This document shows, piece by piece, positions 9,709-32,691 of a DNA stretch of 64,000 bases (the first letter of the stretch is position 1; each line of letters starts with the position of its first letter). Position numbers and translations under genes: made by a program. The DNA is from a virus. Taxonomy: Duplodnaviria > Caudoviricetes. The stretch lies in IMG/VR virus record IMGVR_UViG_3300010163_000001, positions 128,001-192,000 of that record; one strand, 5' to 3'. The notes below the pieces were generated by a model. That model did not search any database, was not told where the DNA came from, and worked only from the letters and a program-made list of their open reading frames with translations.

Positions 9709-9908
9709 CTATGTCACCACCTTATCCTCCTTTTTCGGATTATTTTTTAAAAGACTTATGATATTCTTAGTACCGTAATTTTATTTAAATGTTACGGAAT
9801 AAAATCATGTCAGACTTTTAAAAGTCTGACATGATTCATGAGGGGTAACACATCAATTATAAATACTTTAGGATAGCCTTTTGCTTTAGTATAAAGTTTA
9901 TGTGTGTA

Positions 9909-29200: not shown

Positions 29201-30875
29201 TTTCGTATTTTCCAAGTTTTTGATTGAAGAGGTTTCTTGATGCCGAACTAAGTGTCTGAGCTGCCTTATTCATACTACTCATGGTTTCATCATAGGATGA
29301 TGTTAAAGACATAACGACATCACGCAAATCATTTCCACCAAGTTTTGCATCATAAAGGGTATCGAAAACTCCTTTTAAAAAGTCTTGTCTCGTATCTTTT
29401 GATTTTCCTGTAAGTTGATTTACTACTCTTTCATTGATGGACTTCTTTACATTATCTAAAGTCTCATCATCAATGTCTATTTTACTAAGTGCCTTTTGCA
29501 TATCTGTAGCAAAAGAGTTCATTCCATATTCTAACGTAGTTGTATATTCTTCTTTATATGCATCTTTAAGCTGACTTTCTGTATTAAATCTCCCTGTATT
29601 CATGTCGTAATAACGAGCTTCATTCTTTGTAAGGGCAGATTCAATTTTCGCTAAATAATTAGGAATTACCTCAACCAAGGTTTGTTGAGCAATTCCATTC
29701 CAACTCATTGCATCTTTTTTAAATTCTCCTAATTCTAATTTAGTGACTGCTTTCTTTCTCTTTTTACCAAATATACTACCGATCATAGATTTAAAAAGGT
29801 CATCACTTTCTGACATGTCTCCCAAACGGTATACTAGATTATTCATTGTCTGAGTGAACATTTTATCTGATCTTCCTAGAGAATTTCGTAAATTCTTTGG
29901 GATTAATTTCGGTAAAATGCCTCCTAATGCCATTTCTAATGGAGTCTCTCCACCAATTGCGCTTGACATACCAAGCATTGTTTTACCCATTTCTAGCATA
30001 GACCAAACCATACTAGACTTTACATTTTTCTTAAGCATCTCTTTATAAGAGTATAAATTAAATCCACCAGAAAAATCAAATTCATCCCATTCTGGTTCTT
30101 CTTCTTTTTCAATTTTCTTATAGCCTTCCATGAAATCTTTAATACCTGAAATGGTTTCTCCCATAGCATTAAGCATTTCAGATGAAGTTCTATAAAATTC
30201 AGATGCTTGTTGATTTACAATTGAAACATTTTCATTTTGAAAGTCTATTAACGATACAATATTAGAATTAATTGCATCTAATCTATTATTTATTCCAGCT
30301 AATTGTGCATTTGTTTGATTAATTCCTATTAGTGCAACACTTGTCAGTTGTTTCGAAGTTGCACTTGCTGCTTTTAATTGTGTATTCGAAATTGTCTGAG
30401 TCATATTCTGCATACCAACAATGGTTGCAGCATTTCCCTCAGAAATAGCTTTTCCAAGCATAGCCGTATTCTTTTTTGATTCTCCTAATGCAACTGAATC
30501 TGGATCATTATAGTCTACATCATAGTCATCTACCATATCTGAAAAATCATCAGATGTATCGTATGATTGATTCGTTAATTTATCTAAACTGAAATTTCCG
30601 CTTTTTATGTCATCAAATGCAGATGAAATGGTATCAGCAACTTCTTTACCGACAAGCGTATGACCTAGACTTTTCGCTTGTTGCTTAATTTGTGACTTTG
30701 ACTCTGTTATAAAATATCGTGAATCTCTAAGAATTTCGGCAGTGGATGTTGTGGTATCATAAATTCCTGGAATTGTACCCTTTAATGTGATGCTACCTAA
30801 TTTTTTCATTGTTGGGGCAACGGAACGAAAGGCACTAGTCCATTTATCTAAGTTACCAGTCTTCTTGTCTTTCAT
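17241..30875 (-). CDS. giant tape-measure/tail-associated lysin (~4545 aa) with two C39-like domains, tail lysozyme, NlpC/P60 and M23 peptidase
   Basis: Gly/Ala-rich helical repeats; QNDPRW...GCGPT...GHIV...NDP; GVMGNWQKESG...GLAQWT; DCSGFV...GHTE; HRGLD...HLH. Confidence 0.88.
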   Translation of the reverse strand: MKDKKTGNLDKWTSAFRSVAPTMKKLGSITLKGTIPGIYDTTTSTAEILRDSRYFITESKSQIKQQAKSLGHTLVGKEVADTISSAFDDIKSGNFSLDKLTNQSYDTSDDFSDMVDDYDVDYNDPDSVALGESKKNTAMLGKAISEGNAATIVGMQNMTQTISNTQLKAASATSKQLTSVALIGINQTNAQLAGINNRLDAINSNIVSLIDFQNENVSIVNQQASEFYRTSSEMLNAMGETISGIKDFMEGYKKIEKEEEPEWDEFDFSGGFNLYSYKEMLKKNVKSSMVWSMLEMGKTMLGMSSAIGGETPLEMALGGILPKLIPKNLRNSLGRSDKMFTQTMNNLVYRLGDMSESDDLFKSMIGSIFGKKRKKAVTKLELGEFKKDAMSWNGIAQQTLVEVIPNYLAKIESALTKNEARYYDMNTGRFNTESQLKDAYKEEYTTTLEYGMNSFATDMQKALSKIDIDDETLDNVKKSINERVVNQLTGKSKDTRQDFLKGVFDTLYDAKLGGNDLRDVVMSLTSSYDETMSSMNKAAQTLSSASRNLFNQKLGKYETDVEKVIDEETLRKINIFTDVGFTSTGKRLDQLTEEERAEAEKEKNKKGIIDKIKDRLKNSGKSKNGGKTGLFANFSDSLDRLANILYDRGNGFYRSSDEEFWNEVNSVISDMSGGSTPPPATSQAIINTGNTSAEKNINKEVSKANKETLKDTLKMDRSKIESNANRTERVMKNLENNKSAKINGTEEDKNSIKAMVLSLHHNFLSPMVSGIFGKDGIVRSFFKDVLNNERVKKIREKLFDEETGVFGGVTVWMKDQMNYIKYVFTGKGYTDSNGNTYNEKEDSVFDKIANGYDRIYKNAMKYWFGDDYEENDTYNKYFKWFDFKAKRDKKRQDRLNNATEEVEANNTDSAIIKEANENKKEETNEANIKLQERYKDAWEKMNPMQQGQLYGDDIENFIKEEEEKAKKKKEKELRDKYKKSWDKMDPMQQGQLYGGDFETFIKEEEDKIRESSSKISSQLTNIANELADSTGDIVDRIVGSEEDIQKQQERSNKSIQEKFKEFLPTGLTGATIGAAVGTSVMFSGSGILGAALLPGGPISGAIAGIGLSMLSRSKKFNEFVFGKEDEDGNKTGGLISQKTQKFFKDNAPMIAGGAVLGAAKGMLGIGQGSFLLNTLLPGGPIGGALLGIGFSLLKSNDKFQEILFGEKDENGKRAGGLFSKENGKFAKFMEKSGHFVKGGLKGLGVGAVAGATLSHLGFLGSAVSLGGPVGMGLAGLGIGIASQTEAFKKLLFGDEEVDEHGNVIGRKNNGLLTKMKNMMVLNVFEPVKNKLQGHTEDFALWLKKKLTTPFKEVAGVIADNIHGIKKDVSDTIHDVFEKVGISVTKIFQNTIGKAFSPLTSALKFVGKRAVRLPFDAMKLSLFPVTAGLNLARLGTAKMRHKALKKEKRAVASRPFELIRGAIDNVKAQSAAYDQNEFNGFFGGINRGLTMVKDFKGSLRNSYNAELQKYEDGLSEEGKNHFKWMSARRELKEAVKKHEKFKKDRKVQSRIDRVRHDYAKKFGYVNGSLDDVELAKAKDELQDAGLDISWIKNNKDLNDLLYNKEDFYERFNPDKDKKKDEEKSFEEMAVSDGLKIQESPDQQQDRERTKKFYDWIKEAITPITEHFKKKDEDNSTEEAVINALENIEEATEANAAMNTADTAIETGASISDLRDATNSETVNRADDIIDARRDSDKKKKRDEKEQKESERARSGGKSYQDEEKDKKDKSKADIKGVTDEDKKTVFGSVGGFFKNVFGVAGKLFTSKTFWKLALGSFSIYAVFGEQIKEFYNDKFKPWMQEKALPFIETNIIPPVKDFLINVKDLVFEKAPKFVADVTGLIIDNMDTIVKTSWDLLYAAATSIGKCLISKVAGVFGFKDPFDKGDTQKFETKEEAQEKTKNARHQIKKYNEDGSVEYEEGYQVDDETGQVTGEEGFDGYIDENGVFHATKKVSGFSSGTLYSGLRAGTKYIRGISRPFANKLAKGALKTGGVIAGGAAMGGIGAIGMIPGMGMASKVAKGAAKGTGKVASKISSKVMGSKATKLAQRVQDAQSALLTAQEGLSAAEQTLKNSEAILDTTRNISTNAARSAEVFLEADVAANKAAVNSAKLAVDTAAKNVDDIAANKGIIKKLLNKLLDGLNKVYTSFDKKITGVITKANWTKTIKELIESLSKKFLESDVKLIRKIGELISTKMTEATARTAADGTGVLALVLGAFDALNGAISAADLFGVAASDVTWGMRLTSSIMEVILGIGPMAYIDIVLEVIKAFFPKLDFKRMLARAIYSNLGGKKQLDDAIEEFDKKVAIHNAKHGTNLTTEEYSNLTNNSRNIFGKIHQGWDWLWSGGGNTQAYKDKWKTQEQDTLTDAEQREWDAYKANNKDAKFEDWVNMKFAPTIQSNNPKESTEETYNGPGPIKISNRQKVLGYGTVMQNDPRWGNIPIGKFPDGTTSTMATGGCGPTALSMVASQLKSNTDPVSVASYAQNNGYIKDGGSTAGLFTKGASDMGLSPTEVNKSSIKKSLQSGEPVIVSGKSSMNGPYTKAGHIVVASGIDNNGNVRINDPMRGTRTEKLSNLTSGMTHGWSYRRKAVGYGAASDIVNISDKASNMYDIYDTTMTAKDAAVNAGIIDATSVHPITLINKVINQFVKFAAKYGDRFAAWFSSRDWSDGIKRFGEKIISMVRRCPVSTISAIANEISQKLAEISIRTGASAAIIPLIIGAVYDGVDGWTSAARLFGIAKHDVTWEMKTISSVLQVLLGLPGASCVDLVLEIISMINPQWDIKQIVARWLYSTFFDKEKLDTATDEFEAQVAKYNAINGTNLTVNDWNNKSNKDAGIFGQVQKGFSWVGAKISGGDMTEWNNIYNLQDTYAITEKEHRAYDSYKANGGNLSLAEWYTDQYKKKGSIGFGTGSAKIKWKPSKSLGFGPGDEDLPWFKYGDDYYYVIEGDNSITYRKMDNRYDLENLKDENNLIKEGTQGRLPDSFYEYLNGNAQAEKEASGIDIKVTDSNGRAIKPSKKTTPGVIATKSAIDLAKLGATVANNAFANYKKAKSNATVAEIYGNSSYYLNTDITSNLKGATLNTAVRMQRKIASGLTQTNGEYGFNRIDFYNGLKVKDIKNMVTYKKDLLSDGRIPLFREVYYLFVDSGDYKDNHVITTSELEGIKGKQELSEMFGGFGTYGDSFEYKNGFPFFQTDDPRWSNIPWRGSTVRFRGGDLASLAMVSSAFGNNIITPDYINSNWLDGRYTGWSSPGTGLNQDTIYQDGGFNALRETQVDGKRLQVKKLESMDSVINALRSNKPVVLTGYRYNGSIFNGFYDKGEYNNIGAFNTNTDWRYTADGKNHPENASALDDSNPDSYGTLVARAAQGDYLAVNDPFTTLEQPSVFNVKRLKDKVGQKNAIKSAYVVTGPNGEGISGPVDFSNKVGGTSDYQSVSEAEGLTGKIGAIFNNFTAVFEHMMDALMGGKEYRSIKEVNPFDESGADNSGIGVAAGATANISDPKVSGINYEKDSVGGYMVDPKANATNKGAAEAAEKAGLTSNDPKTVEEAIKKFQLTEQGIMALTTQFTDELQYAGAPPGTPDYENYNTIVTQKIAYAKKMYEMGMPYSYHTAPKVSGINYEKDSVVGNISPEVKKNAAKVFQQQINTNKKKTANSPFFKNNPFAKPTPSGNSKGPFTLNVGYGIGTGNKAFKKAASAVASVAMTNGLKSNGAGQGIVAMMRNGALSIGKKYGVPSGVNTKTDSRYTVTPKVSGVNYATDGVGGYMVNSPQNTGYTMLTNSSDTMNVDTSNATVSQKLQAIGFAISAQASGDDYEKAKQNALIQLMDLSPDNSGDTTASGGSYALTDANDETGYIWNELIKVGFTPAGAAGVMGNWQKESGNHAVRVQGDFSSGYEKSKEYTKNADANPDSFIHDKKGYGLAQWTYWSRKKGLVDKAHGQGLSVGDISAQVQYFKDELQGYPSLLNTLTTTNDVSKASNDMLHVYEQPADQSTREENERIGYSNSWLARYGGGNNTMVASNNTTSANVSYGPGKSSYLRYNILGKSKAIGYGAPWLNIVQAVKQAIAAQQPGYSQSNYITINVGGIQKSVRTDCSGFVSACVSYYTGQDFLTSSSGLLSSNNSLLTNSGFTYMPWTGWTNLVPGDILVISGHTEIFAGRDGNTNMVYNCGSNSSVNNPGITHSSRSAYTVVWRSPEGGSAAINNLSVANSGTNYTNTNSGNTGSSGVVKAGSGLDALLGGLNEVAGAYNQNLIGFGPGPSNKNMDTPEGYFTNTLGGIVTSGYGHRNSELGSEFHRGLDIGAPYGTDIKSPIEGDVISTGTDVAGYGNYAVVKDNDGTQHLFAHMDEPVGYGPGTHVYKDSVIGKVGSSGKSTGSHLHYELRRNDSHNSTIDPTSYKYDTKKYETEEDIGYGSGTMNTNSQVKEKLTVALNTRDIESKMDTIIDVLKTFVEREEKNNKEMSYNSVTNNNTVVSYGNGNTKLPRTYKTSSSKSDKDYSKMSLTKIHEAIAKK

Positions 30876-30941
30876 TATTATTTTCACCACCTTTTTAATT
30901 ATAATATAATCGATTATAATAATTAAAAATAGCTATTATTT

Positions 30942-30953
30942 TAATCTTTTGTT
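30942..30953 (-). promoter_or_regulatory. late-type phage promoter motif AAC[A/T]-N6-TA (representative copy, upstream of the tape-measure gene)
   Basis: AACA-AAAGAT-TA; recurs before many structural genes; resembles the AR9 late-promoter consensus. Confidence 0.6.
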
Positions 30954-31017
30954 GATTTTTGAACTAATAGGTTTTATAATACAGAGGCTACTTAATTATA
31001 AAAATGAATAAAAGGAG

Positions 31018-31230
31018 ATGTATGTTATGAGTATTAAACAATCATGTTCAAATTGTATGAAAAAAGATGTTTGTAAATTTAAAGATGAGATTGATTCGCT
31101 TAATAAAGATATTGCAAAAGTCCTGAATCAACATGATGAAGTTTTACGTTCAATAATTGATGTTAGACTGATATGCAATAGTTGGAAGCAGGAAACACCC
31201 GATATAGCATATCGTGGAATACCATCATAA
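31018..31230 (+). CDS. small Cys-containing hypothetical protein
   Basis: AAGGAG RBS, CxxCxxxxxC. Confidence 0.65.
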   Translation: MYVMSIKQSCSNCMKKDVCKFKDEIDSLNKDIAKVLNQHDEVLRSIIDVRLICNSWKQETPDIAYRGIPS

Positions 31231-31250
31231 AGATGGTGATTTAATTGACA

Positions 31251-31290
31251 AAAAGATCCCGGTAGGAATAATTTCCTACCGGGATCTTAA
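31251..31290. terminator. bidirectional intrinsic terminator
   Basis: AAGATCCCGGTAGGAA/TTCCTACCGGGATCTT. Confidence 0.9.
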
Positions 31291-31312
31291 AACATGATAT
31301 CAATACATTATT

Positions 31313-31735
31313 GGAGCCGCCAATCGATTCATTGCCGATAGCGGCTCTCGTTGTTTCAAGCAGAATCCTACAGAGTTCTTTATGGGATTCCCTACCCATG
31401 ACAGATTTCCAGCTTTGCGGACTGCATTATATCCTCAACCGATGCTCATAGCCAATAAAGCCGTATTCCATATTCACGGCAAAGCAACCTTCCTCTTATA
31501 GGCCATCCTGCTAATGGCAGGCATTCGCGAATATATTCAGGAGCAGCCTTCCATATAGGTCTGCCACCAAATAATGTTATCGCCTGCCAGCACTTTTCCT
31601 TACTTTGCAAGAATGACCGTGTTGCAATATGACTGATGAGGGATCTATAAAACCCGACTGTTCTCCCAGCCAGGTCATTGCTAGCTAAATCCGCGCTTAC
31701 AATCTATTCTACTCACCAATAGCAATTCTGCTTTT
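31313..31735 (-). ncRNA. candidate large structured ncRNA (~420 nt)
   Basis: GC-rich island with no ORF in the track; long-range closing helix; several stems with G-U pairs on the minus strand; starts at an AACT-N6-TA motif. Confidence 0.65.
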
Positions 31736-32136
31736 AATATAAAGTTATTCGTATTTAAAAAAATATTATACCAGGAAATAGTACCACCATTTCCTTCGTT
31801 TCATGATTATGTATATTGAAAATATTCAAGTATTATATAAAATACAATCTATAAAAATCAGATTATACATTGATAAATATCATAGTGTATCATCTGCAAA
31901 CTATTTTTAAAATAATTAAAATAGTTCTTTTTGATTATAGGAATATTTTCTATTATATCAAATATTAAAAATACACATAATCAATATGGTATTGGCTCTG
32001 ATCTGTATACCATACAGATTCTTATCTGAGCCAACAATTTAATTTTATGTTATAAGAATATAAAAAAAGAAGCCACTTTTTTAGCGGCTTCTTAGCTGAT
32101 AGTAAAAGTCTGAGACAACCCAAAAAGGATAATTTA

Positions 32137-32691
32137 TTAAATATCTTTTTCCTCTACTAACCAATGAGGAATTTTGTTTGAAACACGCATTTCAGCATGT
32201 TCTTTTGTTGTTTTTTCTTTGCCGGTAGGTACCTGCGTATAAGTGCCGTCTTCATTCTTCTGAGGTTTCTTTGTTTCCTCAACTTTTTCTGCCCGTTTTA
32301 CCTGGAAAATTTCCATCTGAGACTCATTCTCATCTGTTACCGGAAGAATTAACTTCCTTCCTACACCGGTATAATCCTTCACAATAGTTGTAGCTAACTC
32401 ATTAATAGCGGCCGCATGATCCTTTGTGAACTCAACTTCTTGAATCTTTCCCATTTCCGCTGCATCGACACCAAACTGTTTCAATACCGGTTTTAATGAT
32501 TCTCGATAGTGCTTTACAGGCTGTGTTTCAACCGGTTCCCCGTCTTTAATATATGTCTTAACGGTGTGCTCCGGCGTATTAATAAGGGTATGAGTCAAAT
32601 CTCTTAAATCAGACTGACTATAACGAGTTCCTCCAGCTTCGTTTACTTTTCTTCTGATCTCCTCTTTGAGATCATCATACTTGTTACCCAT
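32137..32691 (-). CDS. hypothetical protein
   Basis: AAGGAGG RBS; flanked by terminators. Confidence 0.8.
   Translation of the reverse strand: MGNKYDDLKEEIRRKVNEAGGTRYSQSDLRDLTHTLINTPEHTVKTYIKDGEPVETQPVKHYRESLKPVLKQFGVDAAEMGKIQEVEFTKDHAAAINELATTIVKDYTGVGRKLILPVTDENESQMEIFQVKRAEKVEETKKPQKNEDGTYTQVPTGKEKTTKEHAEMRVSNKIPHWLVEEKDI

Follow-up and report, generated by a model that had tools for sequence, protein, structure and literature searches.

The window analysed here is a 64-kb stretch (bases 128001-192000) of a complete phage genome of 254,592 bp with inverted terminal repeats and a GC content of 31.5%. The genome encodes a multisubunit-type RNA polymerase beta-like subunit of 1416 aa that matches the PHROG RNAP beta families, and the cultured phages closest to it, with ~32% identity, are those of the Staphylococcus S6/Madawaska group together with Listeria LPJP1 and Bacillus PBS1. 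By sequence, we place the source phage as a distant relative of the AR9/PBS1 jumbo-phage group. Its genes carry strong ribosome-binding sites (AAAGGAGG). ARAGORN detected tRNA or tmRNA genes neither in the window nor across the full 254.6 kb of the genome, and a search of the complete genome for reverse transcriptase gave no RVT_1 match, while control genomes did match.

The RNA locus is a 1.2-kb minus-strand gap without a credible gene, located between a 184-aa gene and a giant gene of 4549 aa (Table 1). For the 184-aa protein, metagenome assemblies contain 42 clusters of homologs (45-71% identity), and Pfam and PHROG searches with it returned no match. AlphaFold models it with confidence (pLDDT 93), and the best fold matches, all weak, are to HU/IHF-type DNA-binding proteins (Foldseek E = 0.015, VIA Z = 5.2-5.4). 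On the other side of the gap, homologs of the giant gene have lysozyme domains as well as peptidase domains of the M23 and C39 types. The tape-measure gene that the earlier note had named as the neighbour is indeed one for a giant virion protein, whose N-terminal part has weak similarity to the 'tape measure' protein of phage phiR1-37. Since the listed GTG start of the giant gene (30890) falls within the gene's own ribosome-binding site (AAGGTGGTGA, 30893-30884), the ATG at 30875 is the likely start.

Table 1 Features of the RNA locus and its surroundings, with positions in the window
Feature	Position	Strand	Remark
184-aa gene	32137..32691	minus	upstream of the RNA unit
Terminator of the 184-aa gene	32067..32093	minus	11-bp stem and T run; 5' limit of the RNA unit
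Promoter 1 (predicted), AACA-TAAAAT-TA	32040..32051	minus	exact AR9 late consensus; predicted +1 A32040
Hairpin H1	32001..32019	minus	7-bp stem, UGGUA loop; 15/16 lineages, differing stems
5' domain between H1 and H2	31849..31940	minus	two conserved strands enclosing hairpin 31926-31899
Hairpin H2	31773..31795	minus	9-bp stem, UGGUA loop; 16/16 lineages, covarying stems
Promoter 2 (predicted), AACT-TTATAT-TA	31735..31746	minus	one-base variant of the AR9 consensus; predicted +1 A31735
Rod	31358..31733	minus	the RNA of the earlier note; from fold and comparison
P1	31733-31725/31366-31358	minus	covaries
P1b, CUA/UAG	31722-31720/31370-31368	minus	covaries
5' internal loop of the rod	31719-31715	minus	
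P2, GAGU/ACUC	31714-31711/31376-31373	minus	covaries
P3	31707-31701/31407-31401	minus	
Variable centre of the rod	31700-31408	minus	single-sequence fold
Hairpin P-last	31399-31382	minus	covaries
A-rich junction strand	31381-31377	minus	
3' hairpin GAGCCGC...GCGGCUC	31314..31347	minus	no U tail; window-specific; relatives have a terminator at the same place
Terminator-like hairpin	31249..31288	minus	perfect 16-bp stem, then U's; bidirectional, also ends the antisense ORF
Antisense ORF, 70 aa	31018..31230	plus	between RNA and giant gene; not part of the RNA
Late-type promoter of the giant gene, AACA-AAAGAT-TA	30953-30942	minus	conserved in most lineages
Perfect palindrome ATAATCGATTAT	30917-30906	minus	giant-gene 5' UTR; kept in nearly all relatives
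Giant gene, 4549 aa	17241..30890	minus	downstream of the RNA unit; 13.6 kb

From the letters of the window, the earlier note had singled out a GC-rich island without an ORF at 31313-31746 and had read it as a structured RNA. The island is real, with 44-47% GC in 200-nt windows between 31300 and 31700 against 18-25% in the flanks and 31.5% in the genome. No frame is open on either strand; all six are interrupted by all three stop codons, and recoding can therefore not rescue an ORF. The proposed pairing of the two ends, AAGCAGAAT (31733-31725) with ATTCTGCTT (31366-31358), appears in the MFE and centroid structures alike, and the MFE structure also contains the internal helices GACCTGGCTG/CAGTCGGGTT, TGGCAGGC/GCCTGCCA, GCCGT/ACGGC and ATGGG/CCCAT as well as the 3' hairpin GAGCCGC/GCGGCTC. 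These window-specific internal helices, which come from a single-sequence fold, may be right. Folded by itself, the window sequence reaches z = -2.3 on the minus strand, where 2 of 100 dinucleotide shuffles were as good, and z = -1.7 on the plus strand. Because this is only moderately better than shuffles, the window sequence alone is not convincing; it is the comparison with 15 related lineages that raises the signal above chance.

The late promoter consensus of the AR9 nvRNAP, mapped by dRNA-seq, is AACA-(6N)-TA/G, its final base being +1 (PMC5312081, PMC7598289). An exact copy at 32051-32040, together with the AR9-like polymerase subunit encoded by the genome, would make promoter 1 a late promoter of the AR9 type, and AACA-N6-TA is found 17-32 nt upstream of H1 in 13 of the 16 lineages. 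The earlier note had started its RNA exactly at a late-promoter motif further downstream, AACTTTATATTA at 31746-31735. That motif is the published AR9 late consensus with one base changed and belongs to a type enriched in intergenic DNA, but only 5/16 lineages have it at this position. Both AACA-N6-TA and AACT-N6-TA are ~2.7-fold enriched in the intergenic DNA of this genome (AACA-N6-TA, 25.6% versus 9.5% expected), and control motifs with another fourth base or another spacing showed no intergenic enrichment. We infer from the likeness to AR9 that both predicted promoters of the RNA unit belong to the late class; for AACT-N6-TA, the assignment as late rather than early in this phage leans on that likeness, since a simple count of 8-mers enriched upstream of genes returned ribosome-binding sites only. 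Elsewhere in the window, at 9800-9898 on the minus strand, an AACT-N6-TA motif (AACTTTATACTA) is followed by ~90 nt ending in a terminator-like hairpin, and then by an AACA-TTTAAA-TA motif and the ribosome-binding site of a 158-aa gene. This element, whose first bases resemble the start of the big RNA, may be a short late sRNA or a leader.

The structured element of ~420 nt described in the earlier note exists and forms the 3' domain of a conserved unit that is larger and spans 32051-31249, from promoter 1 through H1, H2 and the rod to the terminator. As the conserved start lies upstream of H1, a transcript of ~790 nt would be expected, joined in this phage by another of ~490 nt. At the 5' limit of the unit, an equivalent hairpin with a T run follows the upstream gene in all relatives. 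At its 3' end, the strong terminator that had been pointed out is a 16-bp GC-rich hairpin followed by U's; its stem was recognised by the terminator portion of an unrelated Rfam model, and a terminator scanner missed it, probably because the T run is partly contained in the stem. Strong terminators separate the RNA unit from the giant gene in all lineages.

Homologs of the locus, whose collection the earlier note had proposed, were assembled into a set of 16 distinct lineages including the window, with contigs for 12 of the 42 clusters plus a few from IMG/VR and JGI, and base pairs covary across them. The order 186-aa gene, gap of 0.7-1.4 kb and giant gene, all on the same strand, was seen in every contig examined. 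The gaps of the relatives are nearly unalignable by BLAST, nhmmer and MAFFT, and nhmmer and blastn searches with the window RNA against them gave almost no matches; the primary sequence of the RNA is barely kept even where the neighbouring protein is 60-70% identical. Searches of 50,697 cultured phage records with the RNA (blastn) and with the 184-aa neighbour (tblastn) gave no match, the N-terminal part of the giant protein gave weak domain matches only, and no cultured phage with this locus was found. IMG/VR protein-pattern scans with single proteins yielded nothing, a scan with the family alignment yielded one relative, JGI metagenomes contributed 5 loci, and the GTDB genomes searched contained no such locus. 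In one relative (L013:4655-5143) an extra gene with a Tad2-like domain, anti-Thoeris by its Pfam name, is situated between the 186-aa gene and the RNA unit.

The most constant parts of the unit are the hairpins H1 and H2. Their stems of 7-10 bp differ from lineage to lineage yet remain complementary, while the loop UGGUA is invariant; for H1, compensatory changes occur in most of its eight pairs. The whole genome contains 6 UGGUA hairpins versus 1.6 in shuffles, of which H1 and H2 are the cleanest, and with only 6 in 254 kb we rejected the idea of a genome-wide element. An internal UACCA partner for the loops was also rejected, as none is conserved.

Between the two hairpins, the strands CUAUAAUCA (31940-31932) and UGAUU-UUU-AUAG (31860-31849) hardly vary across 10 lineages, and each occurs once in the genome. 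Their outer 4 bp occur in four complementary versions (CUAU/AUAG, CCAU/AUGG, UCAU/AUGA and UUAU/AUAG), with a U-U mismatch in 4 lineages, and RNAalifold called no pairs over the H1-H2 interval. The two strands may pair with each other; we regard this helix as tentative because of the 4 mismatched lineages and the empty RNAalifold result. A genome search led us to reject the conserved strands AUAAUCAAAAA and UGAUUUUUAUAG as repeated promoter motifs. We also observed a sigma-70-like promoter, TTGATA-16-TATAAT (31961-31934, minus strand, 11/12 consensus), overlapping the conserved CUAUAAUCA strand; it may be a chance match, since the -35 looked unconserved in the printed alignments of the relatives.

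The unit is always located directly upstream of the giant gene on the same strand and begins just 3' of a late promoter; its hairpins with an invariant pentaloop resemble boxB sites, and a strong terminator precedes the giant gene in all lineages. All of this would be expected of a cis-acting leader of the giant gene, either an attenuator or a processive antitermination element of the lambda nut/boxB, HK022 put or EAR type, in which H1 and H2 would load a factor on the polymerase for read-through of the terminator into the 13.6-kb gene. The region behind the terminator argues otherwise. In at least 12 lineages the terminator is followed by a separate conserved AACA-N6-TA, then by the palindrome ATAATCGATTAT, and then by the giant-gene ribosome-binding site. 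Moreover, in the window and in L003 (L003:5436-5678, minus strand), and in these two lineages only, a Cys-containing antisense ORF of 70-80 aa, together with a bidirectional terminator, is inserted between RNA and giant gene; the two ORFs are weakly homologous (E = 2e-5) and have no Pfam match. Neither did we notice, in an unsystematic search, any antiterminator pairing with the terminator stem, and we know of no precedent for a hypervariable rod of 200-460 nt in attenuator or antitermination leaders, which also counts against this reading. Since the terminator is followed by a promoter of the giant gene's own and an antisense gene may intervene, we consider a leader function unlikely, and this applies to the proposed read-through mechanism as well. 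An IMG/VR scan with a DNA pattern of the giant-gene 5' UTR returned 13 chance matches, none of them with UGGUA hairpins.

Downstream of H2, every lineage has a rod of 200-460 nt with a closed, mostly rod-like fold. We traced the rod base by eye in nine of the 16 lineages, and P1, P1b, P2 and P-last covary across them; in the other lineages, homology of the rod is given by its position, the flanking H2 and terminator, and the fold. The sequence of P1 is different in each traced lineage, and the duplexes formed by a lineage's own P1 strands (-5.6 to -13.0 kcal/mol) are far more stable than those formed across lineages (mean -2.4). P1b is CUA/UAG in seven lineages and CCA/UGG in two, and the loop between P1b and P2 has 5-7 nt on the 5' side versus 2 nt on the 3' side. 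P2 is fully paired (4/4) in all nine lineages with five different sequences, namely GAGU/ACUC, GAGC/GCUC, GAGG/CCUC, GGGG/CCCC and GGAU/AUCC. Above P2 comes a three-way junction, in which the long arm meets a small hairpin, its loop rich in purines, and an A-rich strand that mostly reads AUAAAGA. Imposing this family architecture on the window rod costs only 0.7 kcal/mol (-119.3 versus -120.0 kcal/mol). High GC content is no trait of the family: the rods of two relatives have 20-23% GC and are still significantly folded.

Covariation was counted on small, partly hand-anchored alignments, and since MAFFT could not align the rod centres, it bears on the outer helices, H1/H2 and two close pairs of lineages. 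For the closest divergent pair, L009 and L018 (~27% substitutions), RNAalifold gave 107 shared pairs, among which 13 double compensatory changes and ~22 compatible single changes were counted and none was broken; with the MFE of one sequence alone as reference, 32 of the 49 pairs that had changed were kept. For L007, L011 and L010, compensatory changes were found in 34 of 82 pairs, mostly in the outer helices.

The claim that the island encodes a structured RNA also draws on strand asymmetry. The sense MFE is 13-58 kcal/mol below that of the antisense strand in 16/16 lineages; the z of the rod is -2.4 to -9.1 on the sense strand and weaker on the antisense strand in every lineage, mostly near zero. 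With the sense strand more stable throughout, the rod is best understood as RNA with many G-U pairs, and not as DNA. An element acting as DNA, for instance an origin of replication, a site for packaging or an array bound by the HU/IHF-like protein, with cruciform or bent DNA, could account for the density of inverted repeats, the AT-rich surroundings of the island and the fold matches of the upstream gene product. It would not explain why the loop is conserved on one strand only while the stems stay complementary despite sequence change, nor the G-U pairs that make the sense strand far more stable in all lineages; a cruciform, which needs both strands folded, misfits this asymmetry. Promoter and terminator motifs flank the unit in the sense direction, and there is no GC-skew switch. 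We regard such an element as very improbable.

Two features could suggest instead the decaying, functionless remnant of a gene or mobile element: the sequence is scarcely conserved between relatives whose neighbour protein is 60-70% identical, and ORF-like stretches of 50-135 aa are present. The six-frame peptides of the 16 lineages share no conserved frame, their matches being short, in several frames, on both strands and between near relatives only; a recoded or hidden ORF was thus rejected, and the lack of any frame or peptide common to the lineages speaks against a decaying gene too. Position, promoter, H1, H2, basal junction and terminator have been kept over 16 lineages with covarying pairs, and a significant fold on one strand only is not expected of a remnant. 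This reading is already largely refuted, and we give it next to no weight.

The Rfam covariance-model search that the earlier note had proposed was carried out, and no family matched. At the gathering score, Rfam 15 gave 0 matches in the 64-kb window and in the 15 related loci (108 kb), with GOLLD, ROOL, OLE, HEARO, raiA, 6S, RNase P, tmRNA and SRP as well as T-box, group I/II introns and pRNA among the families covered. With E values up to 10, the interval 30800-32300 produced chance-level matches to sRNA and miRNA models only, mostly on terminator hairpins. Retron msr-msd, DGR template and group II intron were ruled out by the missing RVT_1 match, and when the 521-nt region was compared with the genome that carries it, to find a DGR template repeat, only the region itself and its own terminator hairpin came up; these readings are excluded because there is neither a reverse transcriptase nor a second copy of the sequence. 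We also rejected a mimic of the AR9 template-strand promoter element within the RNA, which is not conserved. The suggestion of a possible new class holds up with respect to Rfam, tRNA and tmRNA in the window, and with respect to Rfam in the 15 relatives. Judging from these sequence comparisons, the RNA family is apparently one not yet described.

We consider it probable that the locus encodes a structured non-coding RNA that stands alone, is expressed late and belongs to an undescribed family, which is conserved across a clade of uncultured jumbo phages of the AR9/PBS1 kind; we infer its transcription, its late timing and its binding. The phage non-virion RNA polymerase would start at AACA-N6-TA, with +1 at ~32040, and in this phage a second time at AACT-N6-TA, with +1 at ~31735, and would stop at the hairpin 31288-31249, giving RNAs of ~790 nt and ~490 nt. 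The 5' domain of the RNA would display the two UGGUA-loop hairpins, and the 3' domain would fold as a long irregular hairpin whose sequence changes fast while its pairing is kept. The invariant loops and the basal junction could then serve as specific sites for a protein or for the end of another RNA, with the rod as a double-stranded body in which shape would count more than sequence. Because a few invariant sites (two pentaloops and the junction) are combined with a sequence-free, always-paired body, a trans-acting ribonucleoprotein scaffold or decoy acting late in infection seems to us the most likely function, a guess from the architecture. The UGGUA hairpins and a protein partner probably form an RNA-protein recognition pair, for which the upstream 184-aa protein, weakly HU/IHF-like in its predicted fold, is a candidate partner.

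The position of the RNA gene among late structural genes makes a role in virion assembly conceivable. The RNA might act in the virion or its assembly, forming a particle with the HU/IHF-like or the giant protein, or, as a variant, the UGGUA loops might capture the ACCA-3' end of tRNA; we see this as a rather doubtful alternative. If true, tail or genome packaging would depend on the RNA, or the RNA would itself be packaged; it would then be a second case resembling pRNA, in an entirely different group of phages. The tRNA variant would make it a phage tRNA-binding RNA acting like T-box and RNase P RNAs.

For the stand-alone RNA that we favour, the interest lies first in its conservation, at a fixed position in the late module, across a clade of uncultured jumbo phages with their own AR9-type polymerases, and second in its unusual evolution, with invariant pentaloops and a junction beside a sequence-free, always-paired body. 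To our knowledge, few large structured non-coding RNAs exist, and every new class until now has brought new biology or architecture. GOLLD, ROOL and OLE form RNA cages. The RNA described here offers a defined target for structure work and possibly a new layer of jumbo-phage late development, and the case shows that RNA genes in metagenomic relatives can be located through the AR9 late promoter consensus.

Several known systems share individual traits with the new RNA. In T-box leaders and in the L15 loop of RNase P, a UGGN/GGU sequence pairs with the 3'-NCCA of tRNA. The UGGU of H1 and H2 is likewise complementary to tRNA ACCA-3', and two relatives read GGUGGUACC, as in the T-box sequence. However, the new motif is a hairpin loop and not an antiterminator bulge, it has no aminoacyl-tRNA synthetase context, and the T-box and RNase P models are unmatched. 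Like lambda nut boxB and HK022 put, the new RNA has short hairpins with an invariant pentaloop and free stems, in two copies near a phage promoter. It departs from them in that its loop reads UGGUA, where theirs is of the purine-rich GNRNA type, in that a single transcript holds both copies, 5' of a large rod, and in that the downstream gene has its own promoter. The phi29 pRNA is also phage-encoded, with a conserved secondary structure and little sequence conservation, but its model is unmatched and the new RNA is three to five times larger.

6S RNA is a rod of ~180-200 nt in which a large central bubble mimics an open promoter. Both RNAs have a rod closed by pairing of the 5' and 3' ends, with a shape that is kept while the sequence is poorly conserved, and the new RNA could in principle likewise be a decoy for a nucleic-acid-binding enzyme. 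In contrast to 6S RNA, the new rod (200-460 nt) is about twice as long and is joined to an extra 5' domain of 300 nt; the Rfam 6S model is unmatched, no conserved central bubble was noticed among the rods, whose centres do not align, and no conserved mimic of the AR9-type template-strand promoter element was found. GOLLD and ROOL are large ornate RNAs, often found in Firmicutes phages and prophages. The new RNA resembles them in size (0.5-0.8 kb), in belonging to a phage of low-GC hosts, in having a predicted transcription unit of its own and in its many helices. Yet the GOLLD and ROOL covariance models match neither the window nor its 15 relatives, the new gene does not lie beside tRNAs, of which the genome has none, and the new RNA has an architecture of its own, twin UGGUA hairpins followed by a hypervariable rod closed by a three-way junction.
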